DNA of 64,000 nt from an uncultured virus (IMG/VR IMGVR_UViG_3300032132_000750) (taxonomy: Duplodnaviria; Heunggongvirae; Uroviricota; Caudoviricetes): IMG/VR virus record IMGVR_UViG_3300032132_000750. The stretch is one strand, 5' to 3'. Each line of letters starts with the position of its first letter. Within the stretch, counting starts at the first letter, position 1. Of the stretch, positions 17,474 to 63,251 are shown piece after piece. The position numbers were made by a program, and so were the translations under genes. The notes below the pieces were generated by a model, which searched no databases, was not told the DNA's origin, and was given only the letters and a program-made list of their open reading frames with translations.

Positions 17474-18223
17474 ATGGGAAGAGTGCCAGGATATCTAGGA
17501 AATACCAGTTATTGGTTTGGAGAACTAGGCTTTAGTAGTTCCCGTAGTAGACGTAGACGCGATGAGCGTCGTCAACAGCAACTACAACAACAGCAGCAAC
17601 AATTAGCTAAGCAGCAAGCGAGCAATATCCAAAAACAAATAAAAGTACAACAGAGATTAGCACAACCAGCTTTTAATAAAGGCCAGCAACAAGCACAACA
17701 GAGAATAGCGCAACAACGCCAACAACAAATGGCTGCACAAGCAAAGGTTGTCGCATCACGAGCCGCACCCCCAAAACCTACTGCGGCCCCTCTGATTATG
17801 CCAACAGTAGCCCCAGCCCCATCGGGAATGACTTTACAACAAGAAGAAGCTATGTTGATGGCGCAGCTTAATGCGGGTGCAAGTGAGGCCCCAATTTCTG
17901 ATCCCGCAATGGACGCTGGTGGTGGGGGTGGTGGTGATTATACCCCATCATCTGGTGGTGAAGCTAGTATGACGCCGGAAGAGATGGAAGAACAACGTTC
18001 TATAGAAGCAGAAAGGGTAGCTGCCGAGCTTGCTGCTAAATTCCCTGGAAAGACTATTACACAAGCTGAAATCCAGGCTGAGGTAGAGACACGTCTCCCG
18101 CAAGCTCCTGTTTTCCCAAGCCAACGTCAAGGCCCTGCGCGACAAGGCTTTTTTGGGAAAGTTCTTGACGCACTGTTCGGGCCTCCATCGCCCCCACAAC
18201 CTTTAGGTTACTATCGTTTTTAG
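17474..18223 (+). CDS. RPGYLG-tag family protein, Gln/Pro/Ala-rich
   Basis: N-term MGRVPGYLGNTSYWFGELG, poly-Q tract, C-term PLGYYRF. Confidence 0.8.
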   Translation: MGRVPGYLGNTSYWFGELGFSSSRSRRRRDERRQQQLQQQQQQLAKQQASNIQKQIKVQQRLAQPAFNKGQQQAQQRIAQQRQQQMAAQAKVVASRAAPPKPTAAPLIMPTVAPAPSGMTLQQEEAMLMAQLNAGASEAPISDPAMDAGGGGGGDYTPSSGGEASMTPEEMEEQRSIEAERVAAELAAKFPGKTITQAEIQAEVETRLPQAPVFPSQRQGPARQGFFGKVLDALFGPPSPPQPLGYYRF

Positions 18224-18694
18224 GCCAAGAGTGGCCCGCTTTGACTACAAGTCAACCCTATACAGAGAACACAATTTGGAATGTCGCAAAAACCTAAACG
18301 GAAGAAGCCAGAAGAAAATTCGGGCTGCCTAAGCGGCCTAATGATGGCCTTTATTCTAGTTTTCTTTGTTCCAATCATGTGGTTGGCAAAGAAAATGGAT
18401 ACAGGGGCTCCCAACGCCGGTCTTGGCTCTGGTATGCTTGCTATCATGCTAATAATGCTTGGAACCGGAATAACAATTACTGCTCTCGTGATTGGGGCAG
18501 GGGTTGTTGCCTACAAAGCGCTATGAGAGACTTGAAGTAGAAACAACATCTGACGGAGAGGCGTAGAGGCCCTCTTTCGGCTAAAAATCCGAAAGAAGGC
18601 TTGATCCTGGCCTCTGGTCGGGTATCATACGGTGGGCCTTGACTCTTGGCCCCTCATACTTTTTAGACCGGCAGTTTTTTGCCACGAGGAAATA

Positions 18695-19057
18695 ATGTTT
18701 GCAAAGCGAGTCCAACCCTGGCAGCTTGGTTTTACCGACTTCGAGATGGAAATTCTTCTCAAGATCATGGATGGGGAAGACCTCACCAGTGCAGAAGAGC
18801 GTCGTGCTGACAAGATGCAGCAAACGATGAAGACGCAATACGAGCGTCTTCGCGTCAAGCGAAGCGGAGACTACGCCCAAGAGCGTTACGATGAGCATGA
18901 TCGCAGCGATGATCGTCATCTTCCGGCTCCTCGTGGTGATAGGAAGCTCTACCAAGTGCCGGATGAGGCCATTGCCGCAAAGCCTGCTCCGAAGCAGCTT
19001 CCTGCCCCGAAGGCTGCAAAGCCCCCTCGCGGTAGGAGAGCAGTTCGCACAAGCTAA
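18695..19057 (+). CDS. Hypothetical basic protein
   Basis: GAGGA RBS; upstream TTGATC-16-TATCAT promoter. Confidence 0.7.
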   Translation: MFAKRVQPWQLGFTDFEMEILLKIMDGEDLTSAEERRADKMQQTMKTQYERLRVKRSGDYAQERYDEHDRSDDRHLPAPRGDRKLYQVPDEAIAAKPAPKQLPAPKAAKPPRGRRAVRTS

Positions 19058-19063
19058 CACACA

Positions 19064-19156
19064 GCGCAGAACGTAGGGCATCGAGCGATGTTTCACAATT
19101 GCCCAACAACCCCTTAAAAGTAAAGCGAACATCGCTCGATGTTCCACGTTCAGCGC
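19064..19156 (+). repeat. Heptad inverted-repeat element 2 (30-bp arms)
   Basis: GCGCAGAACGTAGGGCATCGAGCGATGTTT / GAACATCGCTCGATGTTCCACGTTCAGCGC; 3 G:U and 2 true mismatches. Confidence 0.75.
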
Positions 19157-19489
19157 CACCAACCAAATGTCCGTGATGGCCCCAAAAGGGTCATCCTAGT
19201 ATGGCAGGATAAAACTAGAAACCTGTCAACGCTGGAATCAACCAGACGGGCTACATACATCTACATTCAAAATTCTTTACCAGGATCATATGAAGACAAT
19301 CCAAGTAGTTCTGGAACTCGTCTACCCTGACGAATCAACGTCTACCGCAGAACAACGTGCGATCCATGACATCAAGCGCATGGTCCAGGGCAACAAGCAC
19401 GGCTACGCTAAGAAAGTCACTTTGACACGTCTTGAGCGATTGACCTGCGCTGATGATCGTTTGGGCAATCTCCATAAGGAAATTGGCTG

Positions 19490-19861
19490 ATGGCCAAGAA
19501 AAAGGCCAAGGCAAAGAAGCCCAAGAAAAAGAAGAAAAAGAAGAAAAAGCCAACACAGGCACCTGCGATTCCTACATTCAAGAGCCGTAGCGCAACTGCT
19601 GTGACTCTCAGCTTCAGCGATGAAGGACTTACTGAGGTTGAGGATGTTGCGCTAGCCTGGCTTGCTGCAAAGTTATCCCAAGAGGGGGCACAAGCTGATT
19701 ATGACCGCCTTCCTTGGAACAATGAGCTTAGTGGCAAGGGGTGGGAATCGGCAAGGGATCTCGTCAACAAAACTCGTATTGAAGAGCAAGAAGCCCTCCT
19801 ACACCTACTAGACACCATAACAAGTGAAGGTCGCGTACAGAGACTTGCGCGGACCTGTTGA
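19490..19861 (+). CDS. Hypothetical protein with poly-Lys N-terminus
   Basis: MAKKKAKAKKPKKKKKKKKK. Confidence 0.7.
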   Translation: MAKKKAKAKKPKKKKKKKKKPTQAPAIPTFKSRSATAVTLSFSDEGLTEVEDVALAWLAAKLSQEGAQADYDRLPWNNELSGKGWESARDLVNKTRIEEQEALLHLLDTITSEGRVQRLARTC

Positions 19862-20903
19862 GGAATACATGACCGAAGAAGCACAGACCCCTACTCCCGC
19901 CGCAACAACGCCATCGATGGCAGTCACATCGTACGTGGCGCACTATGTGGTCAAGACGGAAAACGGTTTCCGCGTCCACAATGATGTCACTTTCGAGGAG
20001 TTGGAAAGCCCCGAGATTGTGGCTGGCCCTGAGCCGTTCAAAGAGACTTACCAGGCGCTTTACCGACTCCGCGCAGAGGCGGCTGGTGTTACGGCTTTCT
20101 GCACCCGATGCGGTCACTTTGAGTCGCACAACTCGTGGTGCCGTGTTCCCAGCGAAGAAGCTAAGGCCGCCGCCGCCGCCGCGTAGAAACATTGTCACTA
20201 GGGAATCCCCGCTTGAAAAACAGCAGGGTTAGGCATACCTCTTGGGCGTTTCGATGCCCTCGGTTTTGTAGGTTAGGGGGTTCAAGAAAGACAGTAATGT
20301 TGGACTTGCCCTAGTCTTTTTGAGCATGGCCAGCTAGACTGTGAGTGCTCCTCAAAGATCAAAACAGTGACACTAATACCATGAACAAAAAAGCTGAAAC
20401 CACTTTCGATATCGCGTATAGGCTTCGTAAAGAAGAAAAAATCTCTGACGAAGAATATGCCGCCATCCGAGAAACAGCCAGCCGCGCCATCATCCCAGAA
20501 GGTTCTGTTCCGAGTCGTGGTTATGGTGAGGATGGGTCTTCTGACATTAAGACAGTGGTTTGCCCCCGTTGTTGTGGTCGTGGGTCTGAGATTTTAGTCA
20601 CCTTTTCTAGCAGCGGTGAACCAGAGGTTTGTCGCAAGTGCAAAGGACATAGAATCTGCTACCAGCAGACTAAAACTTGGGCTATTCCTGCGGCGGATCT
20701 AGAAGACCCCTTCAGGATTTCAGCGAGGCCGGTATAAAAAGTAGTTGATAGGGTGCGGCTAACTATCGGGTGTGGAAGGCTGGGACCACGTTAAAAAATG
20801 CACCGACGCTCTATTAACTACCCAGAGGAATCTATGAGAATCAAAAACGGAGGTTCGCGAGATCGATTTAGTAGCTAATAACGGCTGCTAGAAAGAGAAA
20901 ATC

Positions 20904-21452
20904 GTGAACACATTCAAACAAGTAGCGGAAAAGTTCGTCTCAGACCTGAGTTGGAAACAACTCGCGACCTTGAGAGATTGCATCTCAGCACGAAAAGCAA
21001 ACATCATCATCGAGGCTTTGCGCCTAGGAACGATGGAGTGGGCTAACGATGAGGAGATGCGGCTCTGCCGGAACGCAAACAAGGTCAAAGCCATCAAGCT
21101 CTACCGCATACGGACAAGAAAGCCAGCCACAGAAACCACCCCATCCTGGGAAGGTTACTACACATTGGCAGAGTGCAAAGCCGCCATCGACGCAACCTGG
21201 CGGGTCTACGAAGTGGCAAGCTTCGTCATCGATTACTTGAAAGAAGGAAAACCGGGTGACCGAGTAACCTTCTTCAACATCCTCGATGCGCACTTAAACG
21301 AAAGCCCGCGAGGGTTCGAGTACGAAGAGTTGCGAGATGCCTTGAACCTCCTACTGCAAAAGCAAATCATCGGTGAAGAGGTTCCCGAAGGAGACATAAC
21401 GAAAACAACCGACATCTGGTTGTTGGATTGGAACAAAGTCGCAATCGTCTAG
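20904..21452 (+). CDS. Protein containing ribosomal L7/L12 C-terminal-like motif
   Basis: NKVKAIKLYRIRT...TLAECKAAID matches the KIxAIKxxR...LxEAKxxV pattern with an insertion. Confidence 0.5.
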   Translation: MNTFKQVAEKFVSDLSWKQLATLRDCISARKANIIIEALRLGTMEWANDEEMRLCRNANKVKAIKLYRIRTRKPATETTPSWEGYYTLAECKAAIDATWRVYEVASFVIDYLKEGKPGDRVTFFNILDAHLNESPRGFEYEELRDALNLLLQKQIIGEEVPEGDITKTTDIWLLDWNKVAIV

Positions 21453-21690
21453 TGGATGATCTTCGGATCGGAGCTAGGTAAGGAGTACTCCGATGCGGAT
21501 GACGTGCAAGCGTCGTCTTCTTAGTTGCTAGGTAAATTGCGGTTAGGCAGTCTGCTGGTTTACCAGCCGATGTTACGACCTTTCACGTAGAATTATCACC
21601 GGCTAAGGACTACTTAGGTAGAGCGTAGGTTGCGCCTGTTTCTAGGCTCGGTTGGTGGAAACGCCAATCGGGCTTAGGGCAGTGAAGAGT
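21453..21690 (+). ncRNA. Candidate structured RNA (~240 nt intergenic)
   Basis: GATC-TTCG-GATC, GATGACG/CGTCGTC, GCTGG-TTTA-CCAGC and a ~21-bp G:U-rich stem capped by GAAA (21636-21682). Confidence 0.55.
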
Positions 21691-21693
21691 ACC

Positions 21694-22131
21694 ATGACAA
21701 AAACCACCCAAGACCGTATTTATGAGCAACTCAATGTTTGGCTCGATGACGGATTTGATGTTCACGCTGTCTTGAATCAAGTAATGACGATTCGTCGGGG
21801 CGAGGCAGAAGTTGCTGCTCGCAATAAAGAGTGGGCCGTAAACAGTAAATACATCTTTGGGGTCAAAACGGCTGATGAGTGCCTTGACCATAACTGGACA
21901 GGTTTTTGTATCAGCATCGTCAAGAAAGAATTCTGGAAGACGAATCGTCACATTGAGGACGTATATCTTCGAGATGTTCACCTGCCTAATGAGTTTGGTC
22001 AAACAGGTCGTGGTAATTACGACCATAGTGACGAAAACGTCTCTCGCAGAGACGTTATTCGCACTTTAACGGGCTTAGGCTTTCAGCATTCAATTGATCT
22101 CCAAAACTGGATGAAACAGCACGATCCTTGA
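21694..22131 (+). CDS. Hypothetical protein
   Basis: ATG after the structured region. Confidence 0.65.
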   Translation: MTKTTQDRIYEQLNVWLDDGFDVHAVLNQVMTIRRGEAEVAARNKEWAVNSKYIFGVKTADECLDHNWTGFCISIVKKEFWKTNRHIEDVYLRDVHLPNEFGQTGRGNYDHSDENVSRRDVIRTLTGLGFQHSIDLQNWMKQHDP

Positions 22132-22288
22132 TCCCAACAAACCAGACTACCACTTAGCCTGGCTATTGCCAGGAGCGCCTTTTGGGGTATAAAGGTAGGA
22201 TACGCCTGCCCGACCACTCTTTCATCATTTCAAACCTAATCGCTGAAGACAGCGTTTACTAACGCGGAAAAATTCCAAGGATAACTAC

Positions 22289-23601: not shown

Positions 23602-23786
23602 TGGATATAGAAAAGCTTAAAGCACATCTAGATGTGAAGCTAAAAGAGCTTGAAAAGATAGGCTATCCTGCTGATGAGGCACAGCAAGAAAGCTGGGTGG
23701 AATGTGGTTCCAGTGATTGTCTTGCCTGGGGTAGTGGACAAGGCACTTATGAAGCTTACAAAGAAATACGAGATTTGTTGTAGCCC

Positions 23787-27935: not shown

Positions 27936-28394
27936 CTACTTATTGAACCAATAACCGAGATTACCAGCTAGGTTACCCGGACGACGGGCTCCAGAAAACT
28001 CAGAGGTAATTTCTCCACGCCTTCTTTCTTTGTTGTACTCAGCATCACGCATGGCTTGAATGTTTCTGAACATATCCTGATAACCGGCGGCCCTGGCTTG
28101 TGTTGCCATACTAGCTCCGGGTGCTGCCTGTGAGGGCATATCATCCATCTCAGGGCTACTCAAATCAATCTTGTGATAAAGATGTTGATATATTCCTGAA
28201 TTTTTCTTGTCGCCCATGTAGCTGTAACGCCCCATTGAACCTGTGGCACCGTTGAAACCGGCACCGTTATTACTATTGATATAGCCCATAGTCGCCTCCT
28301 CTTTGACGTAAAACTCTGCAGTCGGATCATCTGTTTCCGTTTTTGCTACCTGGCGTTTCAGAACCGAATAAAGTGGCGAATAAAGATGTTTCAT
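27936..28394 (-). CDS. Gly/aromatic-rich protein with RPG-tag variant at the C-terminus
   Basis: Ends FSGARRPGNLAGNLGYWFNK; start either 28394 (TATACT-6 nt-ATG) or 28289 (AGGAGG RBS). Confidence 0.65.
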   Translation of the reverse strand: MKHLYSPLYSVLKRQVAKTETDDPTAEFYVKEEATMGYINSNNGAGFNGATGSMGRYSYMGDKKNSGIYQHLYHKIDLSSPEMDDMPSQAAPGASMATQARAAGYQDMFRNIQAMRDAEYNKERRRGEITSEFSGARRPGNLAGNLGYWFNK

Positions 28395-28411: not shown

Positions 28412-29107
28412 ATGAACCCAAAAGCTTATCTTTTAACTGAAGACGATTTACTAATGCTGTCTGAAAAGGCTAATATACCTATTGATGAGCTTTTAAATGA
28501 GGTTACAAGTTCAGGATCAAAAGACCGAGTTGCGCGAGCGTTGGACATTCTAGATCTCTTTTTTGATAAACCTTTAATGTTCACCGGAAGTAAAGATCCA
28601 GAAAACCTTATCTGGCATTGCATTAATCTTGTAGAAAACTTGGCTCACGCAGCTAGGGGTTTTGGTTTTATTACTTTCTGCTGCTACCGAGAAGCTATGG
28701 GTGCTCGTGGGCCTCATAAGCTAGCAAAAGGAAAATCCTACGAAGAAATTGTAGTAGCCCTAAAAGAGGTATATGATCGCTATCTTCCTTGGTTCTGGAA
28801 TCATCTTTATTATTTTAGTTTTGAAACAGAATATACTGAGGATGATAATCCTAGCGATCTGCGCTGTAAAAGTATAGAACGCCTTCACGCCTTCATTTTG
28901 AAGGAGGCTAGAAAACACAAGTGTCCTGTAGAGATTGAGGAGAACCTTATTCTTTATAGTGGGCCTTTCTGGCGAGGAGGTAAGCCCCCCAAAAGGCTTC
29001 GCATTTACGTAATGAAACAAAAGCCGACCGGAAAACCGGCTACATATCGAGTTTTTAAACCAACAGCTCAGGCGAAAGGGTCTGAGCCAACAAAGAGGAT
29101 CACATGA
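28412..29107 (+). CDS. Hypothetical protein
   Basis: Long ORF divergent from the previous gene. Confidence 0.65.
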   Translation: MNPKAYLLTEDDLLMLSEKANIPIDELLNEVTSSGSKDRVARALDILDLFFDKPLMFTGSKDPENLIWHCINLVENLAHAARGFGFITFCCYREAMGARGPHKLAKGKSYEEIVVALKEVYDRYLPWFWNHLYYFSFETEYTEDDNPSDLRCKSIERLHAFILKEARKHKCPVEIEENLILYSGPFWRGGKPPKRLRIYVMKQKPTGKPATYRVFKPTAQAKGSEPTKRIT

Positions 29108-29538
29108 TTCTTCGCACACTGAATCGTCAAACACCTAATACCACGAATCACACCAAAAAGTGTCTTCACCCTGATGTTAATGGTTACCCTTGCGGGGGAG
29201 GCACCCGTGAAGGAAAGCCTTATTGTCCAGAGCATGTTGATGAGCATGACTACGTCAAAGACATCCTCCAAATCCTAGCTGACCAAGAAGAGGAACATAA
29301 AAATATCTCTAAAAGAGGTATACGAGCCATCAAAGATGGGAGTCTCACGGTCACGGAAATAGGAAAGCTTCTAGCCAACAGAGGCGTTACCACGGTCAAC
29401 CGTGTTTCGCGTGAGATGAACCTTGACTTGGAGACAACTAAGGTATATGCTAGATATCTTGTCAAAAAGGATCTAGTTATTTCCGGCAAAACAAATAGAG
29501 GAAATGAAACTTTGGCTTTGCCGCGAAAGCCGAACTAG
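29104..29538 (+). CDS. Zn-binding plus winged-HTH-like protein
   Basis: C..C..YCPEH then TVNRVSREMNLDLETTKVYARYLVKKDLV. Confidence 0.5.
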   Translation: MILRTLNRQTPNTTNHTKKCLHPDVNGYPCGGGTREGKPYCPEHVDEHDYVKDILQILADQEEEHKNISKRGIRAIKDGSLTVTEIGKLLANRGVTTVNRVSREMNLDLETTKVYARYLVKKDLVISGKTNRGNETLALPRKPN

Positions 29539-29555
29539 TTTTTGTATAATGGGGT

Positions 29556-30050
29556 ATGCAAAGACCCGGTTATTTAGGCAGCTTAGACGACTTCTGGTTC
29601 GGTGAACTAGGAAACGGCAAAGGCAGCAAAAACAAAAAGAGAAAACATCCCGGCAAACACGGCAAGGGCAAAAGTAGAAAGCATCCTGGGCAAAAAGGCA
29701 AGAAACACGGCCACAAAGGTAACAAAGCCAAGAAAAAGCGTAAAAAGAAGCGTAAAGAAGACTTTAAAAGAGAAATGAAGCTAGTAAAAAATGCTGGAGA
29801 TACTCTTACAAAGATCCTTTCAAAGCCTATCACCAGAGAAGAAGTTGGTCCAATACTTCAAGCTCAACTAGAGGTGAGTATAGAAGCCTTGCAACAACGT
29901 AGAGCTAAGCCTCAGCTAATCAATAAAACGCGGGCTTCTTTGCGAGCATTGAGTAGAAACCTTCGAAAGCAATATCGTGCTTATCCAATAGACGCGGAAT
30001 TCCTCCCACCCAACCTTTTAGGTGTTGCTGTCCAAAAAGGTTTAATCTAG
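29556..30050 (+). CDS. RPGYLG-tag family protein, very basic (Lys/His/Gly repeats)
   Basis: MQRPGYLGSLDDFWFGELG then KHPGKHGKGKSRKHPGQKGKKHGHKG; TATAAT 5 nt before ATG. Confidence 0.8.
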   Translation: MQRPGYLGSLDDFWFGELGNGKGSKNKKRKHPGKHGKGKSRKHPGQKGKKHGHKGNKAKKKRKKKRKEDFKREMKLVKNAGDTLTKILSKPITREEVGPILQAQLEVSIEALQQRRAKPQLINKTRASLRALSRNLRKQYRAYPIDAEFLPPNLLGVAVQKGLI

Positions 30051-44060: not shown

Positions 44061-45293
44061 ATGAGCGAAATAGATCACAGAAAACTTGGACAGGAATTAG
44101 ACCTGTTTTACTTCGATGAACTAGCTCCGGCTAGTCCATTCTTTATGCCTAAAGGTGCTTTCGTCTATAACGGATTGATTGAATTCATTCGTAAAATCTA
44201 TCGCAGGCGTGACTATCAAGAGGTCATTACACCCCAGGTATTAAGTAATGATCTTTGGAAAACCAGCGGTCACTACGAAAATTACAAAGATAACATGTTC
44301 TTTGCTAGTGGCGGTAAGGGCGAAGAACAAGCTTACGGCGTTAAGCCGATGAACTGTCCTTGCCATATGCTGATGTTCAAGCATCGCAAGTGGTCTTATA
44401 GAGATTTGCCTTTACGATATGCAGATTTTGGGAGACTTCATCGTTTTGAGTTGTCAGGAAGTATTTCTGGACTAACCCGAGTTCGTAGCTTCTGTCAAGA
44501 TGACTCTCACATCTTCTTAGCCACAGATCAAATTGAAGATGAAATAGTAACCCAGCTTAATACTTTCCTGGCTTGCTACAAACTCTTTGGCTTTGAAAAA
44601 GTTAAAATTTATCTCTCCACTCGTCCGAAAAAAGCGATGGGAGACATTGCTGTTTGGGATAAAGCCGAGCAGGCTTTGCGTAGCGCACTAACTGGCTTTG
44701 ATTTTGAAGTCAAAGAAGGCGACGGTGCTTTCTACGGCCCTAAGATTGATCTAGAAGTTGCAGACGCATTAGGTCGTGACTGGCAACTCGGAACAGTGCA
44801 GTTAGACTTTATGTTGCCCGAACGCTTTGATCTAGGATTTACTAACGCTGATGGAGAAAAAGAACGCCCAGTTGTCGTTCACCGAGCTATTCTTGGTTCT
44901 ATCGAACGATTCATGGCTATTTACCTAGAGCACACTAACGGTGCTTTGCCTTTTTGGTTATCTCCTGAACAGGTCGTTATTTTGCCTATCGGAGAAGGGC
45001 ATCAAGATTATGCGTATATGGTTGCAGCGCAGCTTCGCAGCCAGGGCTATCGAGTTCGTGTCGATGATCGTAACGAATCTTTAGGGTATCGTGTAAGGGA
45101 TTGGCAAAAAAATAAAATTCCCTACAATATTACTTTGGGTAGCAAAGAAACAGAAAATCACACATTGGCTCTGCGTGCATTGGGTAGCAAAGAAACGACT
45201 GTCATTAACTTAAAAACTTTGAATTACGCCTTAGAAAAAGTTATTGGATCGTCGATTGATGAACAGATCGAAGAGTTGTTATGTGTACAATAG
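44061..45293 (+). CDS. thrS: Threonyl-tRNA synthetase, short form lacking N-terminal TGS/editing domains
   Basis: DHRKLG, LWKTSGH, KPMNCP, GLTRVR, GAFYGPKID, VHRAILGSIERF and anticodon-binding domain; starts at DHRKLG. Confidence 0.97.
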   Translation: MSEIDHRKLGQELDLFYFDELAPASPFFMPKGAFVYNGLIEFIRKIYRRRDYQEVITPQVLSNDLWKTSGHYENYKDNMFFASGGKGEEQAYGVKPMNCPCHMLMFKHRKWSYRDLPLRYADFGRLHRFELSGSISGLTRVRSFCQDDSHIFLATDQIEDEIVTQLNTFLACYKLFGFEKVKIYLSTRPKKAMGDIAVWDKAEQALRSALTGFDFEVKEGDGAFYGPKIDLEVADALGRDWQLGTVQLDFMLPERFDLGFTNADGEKERPVVVHRAILGSIERFMAIYLEHTNGALPFWLSPEQVVILPIGEGHQDYAYMVAAQLRSQGYRVRVDDRNESLGYRVRDWQKNKIPYNITLGSKETENHTLALRALGSKETTVINLKTLNYALEKVIGSSIDEQIEELLCVQ

Positions 45294-52763: not shown

Positions 52764-54353
52764 TTAGACGAGATAGCCAATCAAATCAACAGTAGCAGTA
52801 ACTGTTGTTCCTGTGTCGGCAGTATCAATTTGGAATGTAATAACTTCTGCGGCAGCGCCTATATGGGATAATCCTGGTGTAATTATAGCAAAGACTTCCG
52901 TTGTGAGATTTAAGCCGGTCAGCGTTGTAGCTGCGATAATGTCATCAAATGTCGAGGCATTGGTCCCTACACTGACGACGGCATCTCCGCCAGGAGCAGT
53001 TGCTGTAGTTAATCGTATCCTAACTTCAGTAATAATAGCGCTTCGACCTGTTGGGACAGTATAGAGAGCGTCTGTGCTAACTGTGTCTAGGTTAACGCCA
53101 GTAGTCGTTGATAATACTGATGGCAACGGCAAACTATTAACCTGAACCGTTCCGGGTGTTCCGGTTGGAGATGCTCCTCCGGTTAGATTAAGAATTCCAC
53201 CAGCGCCTGTTGTAGTAGCATCGCCGCCACTTAGGGTTAAACTGGCACCAGCAGTAGCGGCTGTGGTTGCATCTACGCCTTGTATGGTAACTGTAGTAGC
53301 TTCTGCTCCGGCCTCAATATCTGCGGAAAATCTAGCTGATTGATCTACACCGTCTAAAATTAAAATGGTTTCTTGAATATTGGCTGACCTAACCTGGAAT
53401 TCCATTCTAGCGTGCAATCCAGTATTACTTCCTGCCGTGCCTGATTCCCATGAAGAGACGATGTTGCCTGAAACATATCCATTGGCTGCATTAGTTCCGG
53501 TTTTTTCCAAGCTGAAAGAAAGTGAAGTTCCGTATCCAGCGGTAATTGTAGCCCCAGAACTATGGCGGTTCAGCAAAGCTGCCGCTACTACGTCACTAGT
53601 TCCGGCATCGTGCCGAACGCACTGAATAATACCTGTCTCAAAAAGACGCACACCTGATCCAGTTACTGAAGTCAATGATGGTTCGACAGCCGTTCCTACA
53701 GTGAACATCCCGTTAGTTTGATGCCACTGGGCACGAATTCCGGTAGGAAGCCCTGCTAGCCAAGTTCCTGCGCTAGCATCCCAGGACATTTCGCGAGTTC
53801 CATCACCTGCAACAATATCTCCAGCAGCAGCCGTAGCTGTAGAAGCTGATCCTACTTCAAGACCGCCTACGATTTCAAGAGTTTGATCGACACCTCTAAT
53901 ACGCATCGCCTCAACATTAGTTGTTCCCGCACTTCTTGTCGTAAAACTGATATCGCCGGTTGCAGCACCAGTGCTAGGATCGGACCAAATTCCACTGATA
54001 ATAGCTATGTTGACACTTGTATTGTCGTCGTCATCCCCATCGAAACTGAGTCGTGATCCAAATCCAGCAACAGGAGTAGCTGATGTGCTGTGTCGGGAGT
54101 GAATACCTGCTGTTGCTGTGCTTGTAACAGCATCACTTACTGTTGTTGAAAGAACCCCATTACTTCCGATGAATTCAAAGAGGTTAGATCCATTGCCTGC
54201 TCTAATGGTGCCTTCATTTGTAGTTGCTACAACGTCCCCAACATGCAGAGCTGTTTCGAAGTCAGCAAACCCAGCAATAACTGTATCTGCTGTACTGGCA
54301 AGTTTTTCTTGTCCGGTAACTGTATCTACACCTCTTATCGATAATATGGCCAT
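52764..54353 (-). CDS. Fibre/spike-like structural protein (Thr/Gly/Ala-rich, internal repeats)
   Basis: 529 aa beta-rich; duplicated unit (RHS...AGFGSRLSF / RHS...AGYGTSLSF; GVDQ twice); TATAAT 5 nt before ATG. Confidence 0.65.
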   Translation of the reverse strand: MAILSIRGVDTVTGQEKLASTADTVIAGFADFETALHVGDVVATTNEGTIRAGNGSNLFEFIGSNGVLSTTVSDAVTSTATAGIHSRHSTSATPVAGFGSRLSFDGDDDDNTSVNIAIISGIWSDPSTGAATGDISFTTRSAGTTNVEAMRIRGVDQTLEIVGGLEVGSASTATAAAGDIVAGDGTREMSWDASAGTWLAGLPTGIRAQWHQTNGMFTVGTAVEPSLTSVTGSGVRLFETGIIQCVRHDAGTSDVVAAALLNRHSSGATITAGYGTSLSFSLEKTGTNAANGYVSGNIVSSWESGTAGSNTGLHARMEFQVRSANIQETILILDGVDQSARFSADIEAGAEATTVTIQGVDATTAATAGASLTLSGGDATTTGAGGILNLTGGASPTGTPGTVQVNSLPLPSVLSTTTGVNLDTVSTDALYTVPTGRSAIITEVRIRLTTATAPGGDAVVSVGTNASTFDDIIAATTLTGLNLTTEVFAIITPGLSHIGAAAEVITFQIDTADTGTTVTATVDLIGYLV

Positions 54354-54603: not shown

Positions 54604-55539
54604 ATGGACTTTGATAGGCTTAATAGCTATCTACGTAGATACTTTAAAGCCCAAGGTCTGCAAGCTGCGGATATCGATGATCTCGTGCAAACAGCATTGC
54701 TTAAAATCTATAAAGCGTCTTCAAGTTTTGATTCCGAAAAAGGTAGCATCACAACTTGGGCTACAACTATCGCTAAAAGATGTCTGGTTGATCTGTTTAG
54801 GTCGAAAAAGCCTGAAACTGAACTAATTGATGATCTTCAAGGGGCTATTCCTCTTGACAAGGACACTTCGGAGGATATTCAATATCGTATTGATTTGGTG
54901 ATGTCACACTTAAGTGCCAAACACAAAATCATTCTCGAACGAAAGCTTGTTAAAAAAGAACCGAATACTCAATTAGCCAAAGAGGCGGGCATAACTCAAG
55001 AAGGTATTCGATGGAGACTTCACGAAGCAAGAAAAGCTTTTAAAAGACAGTGGGACAAGTATTCTGAAACCGTCTCTTGTATGTGCGGTTGTGGGATTCG
55101 ATTACCTAAATACAATTCACGAGGTAAGCTACGTCGTTTTTCTCGCGGACACTCACGGAGACTTAAAAAGAAGCCAGTAGAATTGATTGTCTGTGCTTGC
55201 GGCTGTGGCGAGAAAACCCCCAAAATCGGCAGAAAGGGCGAGCCGGTTAAATACATCAAAGGCCACTACAACCGAGAAAACCGCAAATACGATGGGAAAA
55301 CCCGTAACGAGCGGATGACTCAAAGTGTTACTGCTAAGCGAAAAGAGCGTAGAACGAAGGCCGAAGAGCTTGGAATCGAGGTCGCGCCAGTAATCACAAA
55401 ATTATGCTGTGCTTGTAACCAAGAAAAACCTACCAAGTGGTCGAAGCACTACAACGCCGACCTGACCCCCATTTATTTTTCAAGATGTATCGAATGTAAG
55501 AAAGCCTACCAGCGAGAGCGTAGAAAGAAAATCGCATGA
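54604..55539 (+). CDS. ECF-type RNA polymerase sigma factor with C-terminal Cys-rich extension
   Basis: DIDDLVQTALLKIY, SITTWATTIAKRCLVDLFR (region 2), region 4 HTH; CMCGCG, CACGCG, CCAC...CIEC. Confidence 0.85.
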   Translation: MDFDRLNSYLRRYFKAQGLQAADIDDLVQTALLKIYKASSSFDSEKGSITTWATTIAKRCLVDLFRSKKPETELIDDLQGAIPLDKDTSEDIQYRIDLVMSHLSAKHKIILERKLVKKEPNTQLAKEAGITQEGIRWRLHEARKAFKRQWDKYSETVSCMCGCGIRLPKYNSRGKLRRFSRGHSRRLKKKPVELIVCACGCGEKTPKIGRKGEPVKYIKGHYNRENRKYDGKTRNERMTQSVTAKRKERRTKAEELGIEVAPVITKLCCACNQEKPTKWSKHYNADLTPIYFSRCIECKKAYQRERRKKIA

Positions 55540-57084: not shown

Positions 57085-58260
57085 CTAGTTAGGTTTTTTC
57101 CAAATTTGGAATACAGCGCGGCAAGGTAACTCGCCTTTAGACGTTATTTCAAATTCGCGACTAACTGATCTCTCATAAAAGAGCAACCAGAAAAGAGCAG
57201 ATGCTTGTCGAGGGCTTGAGATGAAAGCTGTCAAAGCATGCCATAAAAGCCAAGGCTTTCTAATTATTCCGCGAAGAATAAGTCTTTCTGCTTCTTGGGC
57301 TGCTGCGCGATAACGATCAGTCATGTCGAATTCTGCGACTTGTCGGAACAAACCTCTAGCGGCTTTATTGAGTTGTCCACGTTTAGGATAGACCCCACCA
57401 AAGCCGTGAGCCATAAGGCGTTGTTGACGTAATCCTGTATTCCACCAACCGCTAATTGATCCTCCATATAAATCTTCATACGTCGGAACAATATCTGCGA
57501 ATTCGATGGTAGAGTTTCCAACAATAGCTCCTGGGGCTGCTACGTAATCTACGACTTTCCAGAAATCACGATAAGCTTCATCGAGCTTACCTGCTTTATA
57601 TTTATCTAGATCTGCTAGATGCTCTAGAGACCCCTTAAACCAGATATGTGTAAACATACCTGGTTTTACTACTTTAGGGAGGTCCCAAAAATTTACTTGG
57701 TGTGCGTTTAAGCCATTTCCTCGTGACTGTAATACGTGATTTCCTACTGGGGTGATTCCTAGGTAGTTTTCATACTTAACCCCTAGACCTTTAACCGCTG
57801 TTTTGCCGGGTCCTCCGGGGCCACAGCCTACATCTAGCATTATAGAATTTGGTCCTATACCTAGTTTTCTTTGCAACCAAACGTCTTGGCGTATTTGAGA
57901 ACCTACGAAGGATAGAACTTTTTTACCAGTATAGCCTTCTCGATAGCCTTCGTTGAAACCAACTTCCGGGTTTTCAACTCGAACACCATCAACTTCAATA
58001 ACCTTTTCATTGAAGGACTCTTTTAGAAGTCTTTGAATGATCTTATAAAAAATTCGATCATAACAGCTTGTCATATCAGCATTTGCTGGAGTGGCGGGTG
58101 TCTGAGAATTTTTAAAGAATCGTGTAGGTAGTTCAGCAGCTATTGGTTTTGCTGGTGGCAAGTGTAATTTAGGAATACGAGGCAGTATTAGCTTAGGCGC
58201 TCCGACGTTTTTAGATGGAAGCATTCTTTGAACATTTCCTAGGTATCCCGGTCTGCGCAT
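57085..58260 (-). CDS. Class I SAM methyltransferase (CFA-synthase-like) carrying the RRPGYLG tag
   Basis: MRRPGYLG start; MLDVGCGPGG, GIT, NFWDL, GSLEHL, FGGVYP, DMTDRY. Confidence 0.8.
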   Translation of the reverse strand: MRRPGYLGNVQRMLPSKNVGAPKLILPRIPKLHLPPAKPIAAELPTRFFKNSQTPATPANADMTSCYDRIFYKIIQRLLKESFNEKVIEVDGVRVENPEVGFNEGYREGYTGKKVLSFVGSQIRQDVWLQRKLGIGPNSIMLDVGCGPGGPGKTAVKGLGVKYENYLGITPVGNHVLQSRGNGLNAHQVNFWDLPKVVKPGMFTHIWFKGSLEHLADLDKYKAGKLDEAYRDFWKVVDYVAAPGAIVGNSTIEFADIVPTYEDLYGGSISGWWNTGLRQQRLMAHGFGGVYPKRGQLNKAARGLFRQVAEFDMTDRYRAAAQEAERLILRGIIRKPWLLWHALTAFISSPRQASALFWLLFYERSVSREFEITSKGELPCRAVFQIWKKPN

Positions 58261-58360
58261 AACCGCATTATATCAAAAGAAACGTCGGAATGCATGAATA
58301 CGATTACACCGAACCTGACTATAACGTAAGAAAAAGATACAAATAAGCTATAATTAATGT

Positions 58361-59806
58361 GTGGACGAACTACTTCGCGGACTAGAGCGCCGATATCAAG
58401 AAACTAACGCAGCCCAAGATGGTATTACGTATCTATTAGCTTCAATTCGCGCTAGTCACACCTGGGATTTAGATGATATTCCACGTCGATGGCTTCATGA
58501 TAAAAATGTAGAACGTGCTCTCCAAAACTCCATCTCAACTTTTCATACATTTGAGTTAAATGGTATCTCACTTCGCCAACATATATTGGATTTGGCTCAA
58601 GCTGCTGGGAGATTACCTATAGAAATTTTTCCTAGACCAGTGCATGGTAACGATGCGGATAGCAACGCTAGCTTAGACATAGATGATGATCGTTATGGGC
58701 CGCTTGTTGTAGCTATGTGCCTTTGCTTAGGGGAGCATGATGGTAATCCTATTACTAAACTCGGGCTTATCACATTAACCAGGCATACTACCGGGTGCAA
58801 ATTCTGTCAAAATAGGGGGGAACATCTCTGCACAGCTTTTAAGCATCCTTATGCTGGAGGATATGAACTACCCGACAATGAACAAAAACTCATGGGTGAG
58901 CGATTGCGGGACTACCCTTGGCTATCAGCAGAGCGACACGATGAATGGAACTATATAGAACCAACTAGAACCTGGATCCCAGAACAAAATACCAGACAAA
59001 TGAGTAGCTCCTGGCGTTATAGGCTTCATCTGCTTCTGTACGAGCAAACCCCCAGAGATGATGATAACCACTTTCGGCACCCAGCAACCTATGATGTCGT
59101 CAATAATTATTGGAATAACGAATATTGGTATCTTAATGAGATAAAAAGCTTAGCGGCTTTTAGGGATTTCGCATCAGAAAAAGCTATTCTTGATAAGATT
59201 ACAAAAACCTGTGATTCTAACAAGATGAGAACCACTTTTCATAGACGCGGCGCATATCTTAACTACAAAACTTGTATTCTTTTTCCAGTAATTGATCCTC
59301 GTCGGCATATTCCTACAGAAGATCCCCATCAACCTATTGAAACTGCTCCGATAATCTCTCAAGAACCTTGCGGAGATGCGATGGTTCTTGCTCCTTTAGC
59401 TGCGCGAATCAGAGCTTGGCAGATGGGACAAGTTCCTGCGGATTATGTGTTAGAGATGTCAGCGCATACCGCATGTGGTCATGGCGTAACCATCGTTAAA
59501 AACCAGCTTGTCCCTTTGTGTCCTTATCGATGGAGTGATACTTGGGAACCTGTCTATGATAAATGTGTTCAATGTGCCGCGCCAATAGTTTTAGGTAGCC
59601 GAACTAGTGCTTGCCCTCGTTGCCAACAGAAATGGCGCTTTGAGTTTGAAGCTGAGCGAGGAAACGTTCCTCCACCAGACCCTTACTATGAATGTCGGGG
59701 ATGTGCAGGTCACTATGATTCTCGATGGGAAGCTGAAGAATGCGAAGAAACTACGGAATGCCTAGACTACGAATATGCTGATTACGTCGAACCTGGTTAC
59801 GAATAA
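58361..59806 (+). CDS. MDxxLRxLER-module protein with C-terminal zinc ribbons
   Basis: MDELLRGLERRYQETNAAQDGITYLLASIRAS; CVQC..CPRC..CRGC; TATAAT 6 nt before GTG. Confidence 0.75.
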   Translation: MDELLRGLERRYQETNAAQDGITYLLASIRASHTWDLDDIPRRWLHDKNVERALQNSISTFHTFELNGISLRQHILDLAQAAGRLPIEIFPRPVHGNDADSNASLDIDDDRYGPLVVAMCLCLGEHDGNPITKLGLITLTRHTTGCKFCQNRGEHLCTAFKHPYAGGYELPDNEQKLMGERLRDYPWLSAERHDEWNYIEPTRTWIPEQNTRQMSSSWRYRLHLLLYEQTPRDDDNHFRHPATYDVVNNYWNNEYWYLNEIKSLAAFRDFASEKAILDKITKTCDSNKMRTTFHRRGAYLNYKTCILFPVIDPRRHIPTEDPHQPIETAPIISQEPCGDAMVLAPLAARIRAWQMGQVPADYVLEMSAHTACGHGVTIVKNQLVPLCPYRWSDTWEPVYDKCVQCAAPIVLGSRTSACPRCQQKWRFEFEAERGNVPPPDPYYECRGCAGHYDSRWEAEECEETTECLDYEYADYVEPGYE

Positions 59807-59831
59807 TTTGGTAAACTATATTAGGTGATTT

Positions 59832-60230
59832 ATGAGTTTATTTAGTAATGGTATAGGTTTTGGCCGATACGGACAATTTAACCCAGGATTCGATTTTGGC
59901 CCAAGCGATGGATGCGATCCAGGCCGAGCCAATACTTGCGGCACACAGGCGGCTGATGGCTCCTCTACTTGTTTTGATGATCGTGGTTGCCCTGTTTATT
60001 CAGAAGGCAGCGGTGGTATCAAGGTTTTAGCCAAACAAGGTACTCAGGCTGGTAAAGAGCTTTTACGAGATAGAATTCGTCATGCCCAAGATACCGGTGA
60101 AAGCCTCACTGTTGATATTTTTGGTAATAAAAAGCAAATAGGCGGCGGTATAGATCCCAAAATACTTATCGGTGGCGGATTAGCTTTAGCTGTAATTGTT
60201 GTGCTTATTGCGACAAGAAACCGTAAATAA
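59832..60230 (+). CDS. FG-motif protein with C-terminal TM anchor
   Basis: MSLFSNGIGFGRYGQFNPGFDFG; 4 Cys; hydrophobic C-terminus then RNRK. Confidence 0.75.
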   Translation: MSLFSNGIGFGRYGQFNPGFDFGPSDGCDPGRANTCGTQAADGSSTCFDDRGCPVYSEGSGGIKVLAKQGTQAGKELLRDRIRHAQDTGESLTVDIFGNKKQIGGGIDPKILIGGGLALAVIVVLIATRNRK

Positions 60231-60235
60231 CTTTT

Positions 60236-61669
60236 TCAATGGGATCGATTATCTTTTCCGTATGCCATAGTTCGTGGCACAACATATTTATCAAATTCGA
60301 ATCCGAAACCTAGCTCTATTGCGGCCTGTTTTAGGGTTCCACCAGATGCATGCGCTAATTTAGCAACTTTAGCTGCATTATCATAGCCAATATGGGGAGC
60401 CAGCACAGTCACCAACATTAAAGAGTTCTCTACGTTGGCTTCAATCGTCTCAAGATTTGGTTCAATACCTATAACGCATTTATTAGCAAACAGTCGCATA
60501 CTATCGCTAAGTAAAGCAATACTTCGCATCAGATTATGAATTATTAAGGGTTTGAATACATTTAATTCAAACTGTCCTTGGCTGGCTGCGAAACCGACAG
60601 CAGCATCATTGCCCATAACCTCGATAGCAACCATAGTTACCTGTTCACATTGCGTCGGATTAACTTTGCCCGGCATAATACTGCTACCAGGCTCATTCAT
60701 GGGAAGAATTAGTTCTCCCAAACCGCAGCGAGGACCAGAAGCTAGCAATCGAATATCATTCGCTATCTTCATTAGATTAGCCGCTAAGCTCTTTAGAGCC
60801 CCGCTAAGAAGCACTTCTGCATCGTGGCTAGTCAGGGCATGAAAGTTATTAGGATGGGGAGTAAAGCCATAGTTTTTAGGTGTTAGCTTATTAAGTTGCT
60901 TGCAAACATCACCAGACCACGCAAATCCCGTATTAAGTCCGGTTCCTACGGCTGTCCCACCAATAGCAATCTCCTGAAGATGGGTTGCTTTGACGTGATA
61001 TATGTGCGCGGCGGATTTATTGATCATTGTCAGATAGCCGCCGAACTCTTGGCCCAAGAAGAGAGGTACAGCATCCTGTAAGTGAGTACGTCCTACCTTG
61101 ACAATATCCTTAAACTGTACACTCTTATTATGTAAGGCCCCCTTAAGAGCACTAATAGCGGGAGTTAGTTGATTATCAATTGCCAATGTTAAAGCAATGC
61201 GCATTGCACTTGGAAAAGTGTCATTACTACTTTGGCGCATATTGACATCATCATTAGGATGAACCAACTTTTCTTTTCGAAAGTCTCCTCCCATTATCTC
61301 AGTGGCTCGATTAGCAATAACCTCGTTGAGATTCATGTTGGTCTGAGTGCCGCTACCTGTTTGCCAGACTTTCAAAGGGAAGTTGTCTAATAAGCTGCCG
61401 AAAATAATTTCATCGGCTGCCTGACAAATAGCATCTCTCTTTTCTTTGCTCAGAGGGTTTTTCTCGCGCAAGTAGACTCCGTAATCGTAATTGACTGTTG
61501 CGCACGCTTTTTTAAGATAGGCGTAAGCAATGATTAATCGATAGGGCATGGCCTCACCAAAACCACCGATATTGAAGTTGTGGACGCTACGTTGTGTTTG
61601 GGCTCCCCAATATCTATCATCAGGGACCTGGATTTCACCCAAGGAATCTTTTTCAGAACGTGTTTTCAT
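60236..61669 (-). CDS. fumC: Fumarate hydratase, class II
   Basis: YWGAQTQRS, WQTGSGTQTNMN, SSNDTFP, GRTHLQDA, signature GSSIMPGKVNPTQCE; start MKTRSEKDSLG at 61669. Confidence 0.97.
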   Translation of the reverse strand: MKTRSEKDSLGEIQVPDDRYWGAQTQRSVHNFNIGGFGEAMPYRLIIAYAYLKKACATVNYDYGVYLREKNPLSKEKRDAICQAADEIIFGSLLDNFPLKVWQTGSGTQTNMNLNEVIANRATEIMGGDFRKEKLVHPNDDVNMRQSSNDTFPSAMRIALTLAIDNQLTPAISALKGALHNKSVQFKDIVKVGRTHLQDAVPLFLGQEFGGYLTMINKSAAHIYHVKATHLQEIAIGGTAVGTGLNTGFAWSGDVCKQLNKLTPKNYGFTPHPNNFHALTSHDAEVLLSGALKSLAANLMKIANDIRLLASGPRCGLGELILPMNEPGSSIMPGKVNPTQCEQVTMVAIEVMGNDAAVGFAASQGQFELNVFKPLIIHNLMRSIALLSDSMRLFANKCVIGIEPNLETIEANVENSLMLVTVLAPHIGYDNAAKVAKLAHASGGTLKQAAIELGFGFEFDKYVVPRTMAYGKDNRSH

Positions 61670-61779
61670 AACATCCCTAGACCATATAGTTGCTACAGTA
61701 GCATAGCCTAAAATAGGATTTTGGCAAGATTCAACGAGGTTATTTGTAAAACTCTTTTTAATTATGATAAAATAGTGAA

Positions 61780-62883
61780 ATGAAGAATATTGGTTTCGGA
61801 GCCTACGACGGCTATGCATCACTGGGGTTTGGAGATTTCGGCAGCACAGGTTGCGGGCAAGTCGGAGAACTCTGTAAGGACAGAGTTAAAAAGGAAGATA
61901 TCCAAGAACTAATTGATCGTATCAACGATCACAAGTCTTGTGCGGAAAAAACTTCACAGAATGCTGCGCACCCTTGCTCATTCCATCGGCCATTAAAGAA
62001 AACTATCGAAAAAACCATAGATTTTATTGAACGATTAGCTCGTGAAGGCAATCGTCAAGCTGCGCAATATTTAACCCAGGCTGTTGATGAGATGGCTCAA
62101 CTTATTGGCTTGCCTAGTGGTGGGTATCAACGCCTAAGAAACGCAGGTACTGAGACAATATTAGATGCTGGTTTAGAGACTTGGAATGATGCTAAGTATG
62201 ACGAACTAAACAATTCAGCAGGTTGGATAGAGATGTCCAAGTACATGTATTATAGTGTGGGCAACCGCGATAGTGGTGGAGCCCTTAAATTTGTAGTATT
62301 AGCTAGAGATTCTATCCACTTCATGCGTAATATCACCCCAGCCGAAGATGCGCGTAGAGCAACCACTATCAAGCAGCTAATTGATGTAGGTAGGCGAGAC
62401 GCAGGCCAACTAGGCGTTGCACGAGCTACCTTACAAAAAGCCTGGATTACTGAAGCTACCCGCAAGGCATTGCAAACCCAACTTGATGACGCCTATAAGG
62501 GTGCGAAAGTTAAAAACCCAGATGCGAGCACTTTTTCACTTATCGGATCTGCTGTCTTTTCAATGTTTGCGCCGGAAGGTCAAGAAGATATTTTCATGGA
62601 AGCCGGGGGTCAAGCCGCCGACGACATAGCAGCCGGTGACCCATTGCGCTCAAAACGGGTGCAGAATATGTCCTGGTCGGACGTATATGATCCCGACACT
62701 ATTGACTACGGCGTTACCGGTGATCCTAAAGCGGCGGCAGCTCGCGGTAGAAAATTACGCGGTGAAGATTGCTTTACCTTTGACGTGAAATGCCAATATT
62801 CACGGAACAAGTTCAAGGTTTGGGCGGCTGCTATTGGTGTGGCTGGTTTAGCAGGATTATTACTCTACGGATGGGTAAAGTAA
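61780..62883 (+). CDS. FG/LG-motif protein with C-terminal TM anchor
   Basis: MKNIGFGAYDGYASLGFGDFG; C-terminal hydrophobic helix; TAAAAT 6 nt before ATG. Confidence 0.78.
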   Translation: MKNIGFGAYDGYASLGFGDFGSTGCGQVGELCKDRVKKEDIQELIDRINDHKSCAEKTSQNAAHPCSFHRPLKKTIEKTIDFIERLAREGNRQAAQYLTQAVDEMAQLIGLPSGGYQRLRNAGTETILDAGLETWNDAKYDELNNSAGWIEMSKYMYYSVGNRDSGGALKFVVLARDSIHFMRNITPAEDARRATTIKQLIDVGRRDAGQLGVARATLQKAWITEATRKALQTQLDDAYKGAKVKNPDASTFSLIGSAVFSMFAPEGQEDIFMEAGGQAADDIAAGDPLRSKRVQNMSWSDVYDPDTIDYGVTGDPKAAAARGRKLRGEDCFTFDVKCQYSRNKFKVWAAAIGVAGLAGLLLYGWVK

Positions 62884-63251
62884 TGAGAAGACCTGGATAT
62901 TTAGGTGATTTAGAAGATACATGGTTTGGCAATTTTAGTGGCCGAGGTCGTGCAAGAGGTAAATCAAGACGTATAGCAGGCAAGGGACCTACAACGGCAG
63001 AACACAAACAGCGGTGTTTGAAATGTTGTAAAGGTAACTCAAACAGAGGAATTCATTCGTGCCTTAATGTGAACAAGTGCCGTGCAAATGCTAAATACTG
63101 GTGTCAGGATTACAGTAAGAATAAGTGTAAGTCGTGTTGCAAGAAAAATACTCGCCGCAAAGTCAAACGATGCCTTGCGAAAAACGACTGTAAAAAAGGT
63201 CACAAAAAACACTGTGATCGGGCCAAGTATAAGGCCCTCCCTAAACGCTAG
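62883..63251 (+). CDS. RPGYLG-tag family protein, basic Cys-rich tandem repeat
   Basis: MRRPGYLGDLEDTWFGNFSG; two repeats CxxCCK..N......CL..N.C.......C. Confidence 0.8.
   Translation: MRRPGYLGDLEDTWFGNFSGRGRARGKSRRIAGKGPTTAEHKQRCLKCCKGNSNRGIHSCLNVNKCRANAKYWCQDYSKNKCKSCCKKNTRRKVKRCLAKNDCKKGHKKHCDRAKYKALPKR

Follow-up and report, generated by a model that had tools for sequence, protein, structure and literature searches.

A short peptide recurs at the ends of otherwise unrelated proteins in a 64,000-nucleotide stretch of DNA from an uncultured virus (IMG/VR record IMGVR_UViG_3300032132_000750); this whole stretch is referred to here as the window. The starts of four window genes read M-(x)-R-(x)-P-G-Y-L-G, and W-F-G is reached in three of the four; the 19-residue N-terminal sequence is called the tag, and a version of the same motif closes a fifth gene. 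The original prediction for this DNA had listed five such peptides. All five were located where it had placed them (four N-terminal, one C-terminal), and their sequences are present as claimed.

Tagged genes of the window

The short form of the tag, MGRVPGYLGNTSYWFGELG, lies at 17474-17530 (+), opens gene 17474-18223 and scores 27.0 bits against the tag profile described below. The product (P0001, 249 amino acids) is Q-rich, with a P/A-rich region and an acidic region. Near its C-terminus a candidate degenerate second tag-like stretch, RQGFFGKVLDALFG (18140-18181, +), was recognized by eye only; it scores just 0.7 bits and is thus without profile support. Two homologues of P0001, P0039 and P0042, read RPGFIG..[IL][LM]DA[LI]FG at this position.

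The long form opens two genes. One is MQRPGYLGSLDDFWFGELG at 29556-29612 (+; gene 29556-30050, 37.5 bits), whose product P0002 has 164 amino acids, is K/H-rich and has a body isoelectric point (pI) of 11.2. The other is MRRPGYLGDLEDTWFGNFS at 62883-62939 (+; gene 62883-63251, 43.9 bits), with a K/C-rich product of 122 amino acids and a body pI of 10.3. The longest open reading frame (ORF) of the latter gene begins at 62790, yet the tag stands directly behind the Met at 62883, and the ATG there shares one base with the stop codon of the upstream gene (TAATG).

The fourth gene (57085-58260) carries only the first half of the tag, MRRPGYLGNVQ without WFG, at 58228-58260 (−; 13.4 bits). Its product, P0003 (391 amino acids), is methyltransferase-like and consists of the tag, a drifting P/K-rich linker and a conserved body. 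The same architecture is seen in P0007, a 77%-identical orthologue and the second protein with a first-half-only tag: residues 1-11 are the same, residues 12-45 drift with insertions and deletions, and the body is well conserved. The earlier label "methyltransferase" is plausible only. It is favoured by a GCGPGG glycine motif of the glycine-rich, S-adenosylmethionine type and by a sub-threshold NCBIfam match to cyclopropane-fatty-acid synthase (E 0.0015, 17 bits); on the other side, a Pfam scan of P0003 gave no match, and the AlphaFold model of P0003 with P0007 was too poor for a fold search, at a predicted local distance difference test (pLDDT) score of 33.5.

The C-terminal version, RRPGNLAGNLGYWFNK followed directly by the stop codon, lies at 27939-27986 (−) in gene 27936-28289, the window member of what is called here the P0005 family.

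Distribution and consensus of the tag

The tag extends well beyond the window. When a profile built from 11 tags was run exhaustively with HMMER over 1.84 billion protein representatives, 34 proteins (clusters) reached E<=0.001. The tag begins at residue 1 in 31 of them; the other three have 3-9 residues ahead of it, and in two of these three a Met stands directly before the tag, so the gene caller probably started too early. None of the 34 carries the tag internally, though an internal copy would cost only the Met column, and none is a cellular protein. P0009, P0010 and P0011 came from a word-based search whose profile was built on four 40-residue N-termini; P0009 is a further tagged protein elsewhere on the 859-kb contig. 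A DNA-pattern scan of metagenome contigs gave seven stretches, four by chance and three real (L017, L018 and L019). L017 and L018, each 20 kb long and taken from contigs of 368,768 and 164,581 bp respectively, have the same sequence. A pair of divergently oriented genes there bears full tags, and a first-half tag (MRRPGFLQ...) lies 5 kb from them; in L019 the tag sits on a K-rich protein. A genome can hold several tags, with four within the 64 kb of the window and three within 6 kb in L017.

Profile matches and metagenome loci together make a tagged set of 42 proteins. With the tag cut off and the bodies compared by BLASTP (E<=0.001), these fall into 31 body groups without similarity to one another. 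The original prediction had called for a motif and profile search across metagenomic proteins, had described the tagged proteins as otherwise unrelated and had proposed full-length homology as a check for ordinary paralogy. The search has now been made, the description is borne out by the 31 body groups, and the tagged proteins are not ordinary paralogues.

Two forms of the tag are apparent in the sequence logo. The long form (31 of 40) reads M-R-R-P-G-[YF]-L-G-[DNS]-L-[DSE]-D-[TF]-W-F-G-[NDE]-[LF]-[GS], and the short form (9 of 40), one residue shorter between P and W, reads P-G-[YF]-L-G-[GN]-T-x-Y-W-F-G. Twelve positions are near-invariant, and conservation stops five residues past W.

Two further observations concern the neighbourhood of the tagged genes. 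The product of gene 10317-10949 (+) of L017 starts MFGILEGLFGMIRPGILGNPKK, in which an aromatic-glycine stretch precedes a tag-like RPG-I-LG (residue 12); the gene has a strong ribosome-binding site ahead. It may be a rearranged tag variant and was left out of the tag count. The sole family common to the window (29104-29538, +) and L017 (8148-9380, −), with 35% identity over 110 amino acids, combines a Cys-cluster with a winged-helix-like part. It adjoins a tagged gene in both places and may be a regulator.

The lineage left no trace in all IMG/VR scans made and in one scan of species-genome contigs. Tag-pattern scans of IMG/VR contigs gave chance matches only, none at a gene start, and no loci related to P0003 or the P0005 family were found there; the single match in the species-genome contigs was also due to chance. 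One IMG/VR scan, for MRRPGYLG, found nine stretches, of which five were chance and four belonged to one terminase family. These four (L005-L007 and L001; GC 31%) encode a cyanophage-like large terminase of the T4 type that agrees with the tag in nine residues without a mismatch. The large terminase of L005-L007 starts MRRPGYLGNPNLK and aligns there with residues 83-94 of T4 gp17; a cultured cyanophage terminase has MSTTEVYLGNPNLK at the same place. The string YLGNPNLK belongs to the terminase family, the likeness is probably coincidence, and terminase was rejected as a tag bearer.

Gene starts and selection on the peptide

Leaderless transcription is a feature of this genome. Of 127 gene starts, 21 have a TAnnnT box (often TGnTATAAT) that ends 5-7 nucleotides before the start codon, where the background rate is 6.7%; a Shine-Dalgarno-like word is present at only 27. 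Examples of leaderless starts are 50832, 52128, 54353 and 58260 on the minus strand and 50915, 52395 and 61780 on the plus strand. Ahead of the tagged gene at 17474 lies a sigma-70-like promoter, TTGAAA-17-TATACT (17439-17467, +), whose -10 box ends 6 nucleotides before the ATG, which implies a leaderless mRNA. The gene at 29556 has a TATAAT box (29545-29550, +) 5 nucleotides before its ATG and right behind a terminator-like hairpin (29511-29534); the gene at 58260 has one with an extended -10 element, TGATATAAT (58267-58272, −), 6 nucleotides before its ATG. Thus three of the four tagged window genes are of the leaderless type, as are both full-tag genes of L017. The tagged gene of L019, by contrast, is preceded by an ordinary ribosome-binding site, and the one at 62883 is coupled to the gene upstream of it. 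Leaderless starts also create an annotation problem, since gene callers misplace them and either clip the tag, as in P0006, or add residues ahead of it, as in P0008 and P0019. The tag family is therefore under-counted in protein databases.

These promoters raise the question of whether there is a protein signal at all, or whether the pattern reflects chance, ordinary paralogy or an element of leaderless genes that acts as DNA or mRNA. A promoter-plus-start cassette could in principle move by recombination. The evidence contradicts all three readings, and their joint probability is close to nil. In the six-frame translation of the window PGYLG occurs four times, each time right after a start Met (17474+, 29556+, 62883+ and 58260−), and WFG also occurs four times, three of them in tags, 4-5 residues past PGYLG. 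The back-translated PGYLG pattern has four matches against a mean of 0.11 in 100 shuffles, none of which reaches four, and the pattern R-PGYLG-x5-WFG has two against 0.00 expected. Synonymous codons differ among the four window tags (CCA, CCC, CCG and CCT for Pro; CTA and TTA for Leu; GGA, GGC and GGT for Gly), and the DNA upstream of the four genes gives no alignment among them, so selection acts on the peptide and not on a DNA repeat. The L019 and 62883 genes are tagged without a leaderless promoter, a C-terminal version of the motif exists, and the 31 unrelated body groups speak against paralogy. The tag is under protein-level selection.

The C-terminal form and the case for an address peptide

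Gene 27936-28289 (−) encodes 117 amino acids from the Met at 28289; its database copy, P0056, has 152. By itself the C-terminal variant scores poorly (5.6-5.8 bits with the tag profile), and a loose regular expression for it gives four observed matches against 0.20 in shuffles, a setting in which a single extra match is not rare. The family supplies the stronger evidence. Among 28 homologues (P0056-P0083), all 16 short ones (109-152 amino acids) end EFSG-x-(R)RPG-x-L-...-G-[YFH]-W-F-[SGNR]-(K/S)-stop. The P-to-W spacing is 8-10 residues in these tails and 9-10 in the N-terminal tags, and each of the 16 can be aligned over the full length of the N-terminal tag profile (0.3-15.3 bits). The C-terminal variant named in the original prediction is thus real, being kept at the extreme C-terminus in every short homologue. 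By these alignments the motif is one that works at either end of a protein, with C-terminal use in one family, and readings that need a free N-terminus or an mRNA start are ruled out.

The family as a whole shares the core ..PEMDDMPSQAAPGASMA.QARAAGYQD.FRNIQAMRDAEYKKE..EFSG and has two endings, the tag-like one in 16 members and, in 12, a repeat followed by a transmembrane helix and an acidic tail. In P0068 the EFSG-RRPG unit is duplicated internally. P0080, which lies on a contig of 938,049 bp, has no protein match in GenBank phages.

Taken together, the data favour a portable terminal address peptide that is read by one common partner, a reading to which a probability of about 0.75 is assigned. 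It is based on strong selection for the short terminal peptide, its presence on at least 31 unrelated bodies, the drifting linker and use of the motif at either end. In this model, a poorly conserved linker would join the terminal tag to whatever body comes next, and a single partner would recognize the tag.

Cargo proteins and structure of the tag

Tagged proteins range from 49 to 391 amino acids. The pI of the body (behind residue 22) is >=9.0 in 30 of the 42, 8-9 in four and <=7.0 in eight, and many bodies are rich in K/R, Q, P or C. Of 38 proteins scanned, none reaches the Pfam cut-off, and the four tagged window proteins belong to no PHROG and no Pfam family. A polybasic stretch often follows the tag (mean 3.75 K+R in the next 15 residues), and the tag itself holds two or three acidic residues.

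Two structural ideas about the tag were examined. With a hydrophobic segment defined as a 19-residue window with a Kyte-Doolittle mean >=1.6, no such segment lies inside any tag. A Sec, Tat or lipoprotein signal peptide was rejected, since the tag lacks a hydrophobic core and the motif can also stand at a C-terminus. An amphipathic helix is not supported by the moment: the mean helical hydrophobic moment at 100 degrees is 0.20 for tags and 0.19 for shuffled tags. In the AlphaFold model of the P0009 family the tag is a coil with one helical turn (pLDDT 52-56; 56.6 for the model overall, too poor for a fold search), and an ESM Atlas search with P0009 gave nothing at >=0.9. The tag is treated here as a 19-residue, probably disordered linear motif that would take its shape on its partner.

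A disordered terminal peptide with acidic and aromatic residues is also what would be expected of a short linear motif for a soluble hub of host or phage, such as RNA polymerase, a sliding clamp, a site on the ribosome or a chaperone-protease; with the last as partner, the tag could be a shared degron that times the life of the protein. Peptides that bind hubs typically have such a make-up and stand at one or the other end of a protein, the tagged genes have early-type, host-like promoters, and the cargo is diverse and of fast turnover (31 body groups with few homologues each). However, no clamp, protease or chaperone gene was recognized in the window with Pfam and PHROGs, which leaves no candidate hub there, and the lack of any cellular protein among the 34 profile matches gives no sign of host-ligand mimicry. 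This reading is considered unlikely.

Far less probable is a leader peptide that hands the protein over to machinery for processing or export and is afterwards cleaved off, as in precursors of bacteriocins or of ribosomally synthesized and post-translationally modified peptides. It would account for a conserved leader ahead of hypervariable, sometimes Cys-rich bodies, many of only 49-110 amino acids, and for several such genes scattered in one genome. But bodies of tagged proteins up to 391 amino acids long, an enzyme included, and the C-terminal use of the motif fit it badly, and neither a maturation enzyme or peptidase-containing transporter among the window ORFs nor a double-glycine-type ending in the logo was seen.

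Possible links to membranes

The P0005 family may point to a membrane. In all 12 long homologues (185-199 amino acids, on contigs up to 938,049 bp) a G-[FYW]-L-G stretch, a transmembrane helix and an acidic tail ending R-[YFRL]-[YWHL]-[FY] are found, and the helix stands where the short forms carry the tag. A membrane anchor can, by this comparison, take the place of the tag. Two window proteins of the tail-anchored type add to this picture. P0044 (61780-62883, +; 367 amino acids) and P0054 (59832-60230, +; 132 amino acids) have aromatic-glycine-rich N-termini, GFGAYDGYASLGFGDFG and GIGFGRYGQFNPGFDFG respectively, and C-terminal transmembrane helices. They flank the fumarase gene and adjoin tagged genes, P0044 lying directly upstream of the 62883 gene and overlapping its start. 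Any link of either protein to the tag is conjecture; the predicted complex of P0044 (residues 1-340) with its tagged neighbour P0008 (residues 5-70) scored 0.00 and gives no verdict.

The address may therefore be the cell membrane or a receptor anchored in it, a reading that is possible but doubtful. In one variant, the two arginines and the Y, L, W and F residues would fasten the protein to the inner side of the host membrane; in another, the tag would plug into a tail-anchored phage protein such as P0044 or P0054. Besides the swap of tag-like end and helix in the P0005 family and the two tail-anchored proteins, the polybasic stretches behind the tags and the tagged enzyme's weak match to a lipid methyltransferase are in its favour. 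The acidic residues of the tag, its lack of a hydrophobic stretch and the low-confidence coil predicted by AlphaFold do not suit it, and the hydrophobic moment, equal to that of shuffled tags, tells against direct binding to lipid. Moreover, the long and short forms may represent different lineages, and the swap could simply mean different localization.

The aromatic-glycine-rich N-termini of P0044 and P0054 also enter a reading in which the tag is a self-associating sticker: it may bind these N-termini as well as its own kind, gathering basic, disordered bodies with nucleic acid into an assembly or condensate. The aromatic, Gly and Arg make-up of the tag and the basic, low-complexity bodies are consistent with this, and a second copy at the far end of the P0001, P0039 and P0042 family could make a two-ended cross-linker. 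Encapsulation peptides of bacterial microcompartments drive condensation according to an excerpt of one report (PMC12339742). Yet a single sticker per protein makes no network, the second copy is without profile support, and 12 near-invariant positions point to a specific pocket rather than fuzzy contacts. The sticker is accordingly judged quite improbable.

A bolder proposal, offered as a long shot, is that this near-megabase phage lineage has its own sorting system, in which P0044 and P0054 would serve as the membrane reader and gather proteins with the peptide at either end to a membrane-bound site, while tagless homologues would arrive by their own transmembrane helix. If true, it would amount to a selective, peptide-addressed compartment or gate in a bacterial virus.

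Nature of the genome

Window proteins sit on contigs of 196,317 and 859,269 bp, with P0002, P0009 and P0056 on the latter; in an excerpt of a recent report, the largest huge phage "to date" measures 841 kbp (10.1101/2025.02.27.640493). By a simple ORF call the window is 94% coding. It carries tRNA-Glu(UUC) at 10700-10772 (+) and tRNA-Ser(UGA) at 14000-14084 (+), and the catalytic core of a threonyl-tRNA synthetase (ThrRS) at 44061-45293 (+), which covers profile positions 170-558 of 565 and is without the N-terminal region of its cellular counterpart. A class II fumarate hydratase (60236-61822, −) has about 50 additional N-terminal residues. An extracytoplasmic function (ECF) sigma factor (54604-55539, +) bears a 160-residue C-terminal extension with a weak match to an endonuclease PHROG. 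Further Pfam domains are FHA-Ser/Thr kinase, SET, TANGO2, BI-1, PTH2, NADAR and FEN, and a PHROG scan matched a handful of families. A T/S/G/A-rich ORF of 529 amino acids (52764-54353, −) resembles a phage fibre or spike; it matches neither a known family nor any protein of GenBank phages. The window has no DNA match in GenBank phages, and tblastn gave distant matches only, to large myoviruses of Bacillus, Vibrio, Escherichia and others. Among sequencing runs, a single DNA run, labelled marine metagenome, contains the sequence and may be its source; no RNA run is listed.

The genome is a bacterial, phage-like element and not a eukaryotic virus, as shown by extended -10 promoters at the ATG, the ECF sigma factor, the tRNAs and the PHROG matches. 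For this reason the comparators chosen in the original prediction, the proteases of adenovirus, poxvirus (I7) and African swine fever virus (ASFV; S273R), were ill suited, since all are from eukaryotic viruses; the T4 internal proteins with their capsid targeting sequence make a more fitting precedent. Its suggestion to look for a Ulp1/adenain-like or prohead protease led to none among the 83 ORFs of the window, where Pfam and PHROGs recognize no peptidase and no capsid family.

The virion interior as a possible destination

Where the address leads is less certain than that there is one. The virion interior is the preferred answer, by analogy with phage T4, though it is held to be less likely than not. 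As the procapsid assembles, the tag would dock its bearers onto it, at least one enzyme among proteins that are small and mostly basic; the docked proteins would be packed with the DNA and would enter the next cell with it. The tag might then be cut off, and one guess for the site is behind W-F-G-x-[LF]-[GS], with which the end of conservation five residues past W is compatible. This destination fits the T4 precedent, and cargo that is small, basic and quick to turn over and includes an enzyme is in keeping with it. The original prediction had likewise proposed virion incorporation, a cleavage signal at [LF]G and basic members that condense the genome; all three stay conjectural.

A number of observations weigh against it. 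The transmembrane helix in the tag position of all 12 long P0005-family homologues is awkward for capsid-packed cargo, as is a hydrophobic helix at the C-terminus of P0038, the one such case in 39 tagged proteins. Tagged genes share leaderless TATAAT promoters with the ThrRS gene, the SET-domain gene and other non-structural genes, and bear no late-gene mark. The tag is unrelated in sequence to known phage internal-protein families, as far as the PHROG scan of the four tagged window proteins goes. No capsid, scaffold, portal, terminase or prohead protease gene was found in the window or L017, so even the viral nature of the element is inferred.

Should the tag be an address label, a 19-residue peptide would define the whole set of proteins sent to one place by one of the largest known phage-like genomes. 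The tagged proteins are mostly of unknown function, fast-changing and basic, the class in which T4 keeps its injected anti-defence proteins. One tag profile could list the addressed set in any relative, and the tag could serve as bait for finding its reader and as a candidate portable tag for loading foreign proteins.

Comparison with known systems

Short peptides that address proteins are known from several systems. The internal proteins of phage T4 (IPI-III and Alt) are diverse and are reported to have the capsid targeting sequence (CTS) alone in common; there, as here, a short N-terminal peptide is the sole common part of diverse, fast-changing, small and often basic proteins and an enzyme (PMC3012670). 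One N-terminal peptide on unrelated proteins of one phage is what the tag presents, with four examples in the window among the 42 proteins in 31 groups. The two differ in that there is no sequence relation, the tagged window proteins having no PHROG match; this tag is also found at a C-terminus, and the window holds no T4-type head genes. The T4 CTS is about half as long as the 19-residue tag.

Encapsulation peptides of microcompartments offer a second parallel. As far as the excerpts of two reports go, they are terminal (N or C), are joined by a disordered linker to unrelated cargo and have one shell as reader (PMC12339742, PMC11157265). A terminal position and a poorly conserved linker are likewise found for the tag. 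Encapsulation peptides, however, are amphipathic helices of about 18 residues, whereas the moment of the tag does not exceed that of its shuffles and its AlphaFold model is a coil. Neither the 83 window ORFs nor the 22 of L017 include a recognizable microcompartment shell gene.

The cargo-loading peptide of encapsulins is also terminal and docks inside a shell of the HK97 fold, the same fold as that of tailed-phage capsids. Its motif letters differ from those of the tag, and no encapsulin gene was found among the window ORFs. Encapsulin cargo consists of a few enzymes, whereas dozens of basic, disordered proteins are tagged here. The Gly-directed maturation carried out by the adenovirus, I7 and S273R proteases resembles the present case in its basic internal proteins and short Gly-containing motifs; it differs in belonging to eukaryotic viruses, while here there are bacterial promoters and a sigma factor, and no such protease in the 64-kb window.

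The tag is unknown to Pfam, and literature searches with its letter strings gave no relevant paper, as judged by titles with supplements excluded. In sequence terms it is outside the CTS, encapsulation-peptide and encapsulin families, because there is no homology, no shell gene in the window or L017 and no support for a helix. The kind is thus a known one, the terminal address peptide; its letters, its lineage and its use at both ends of proteins are new.

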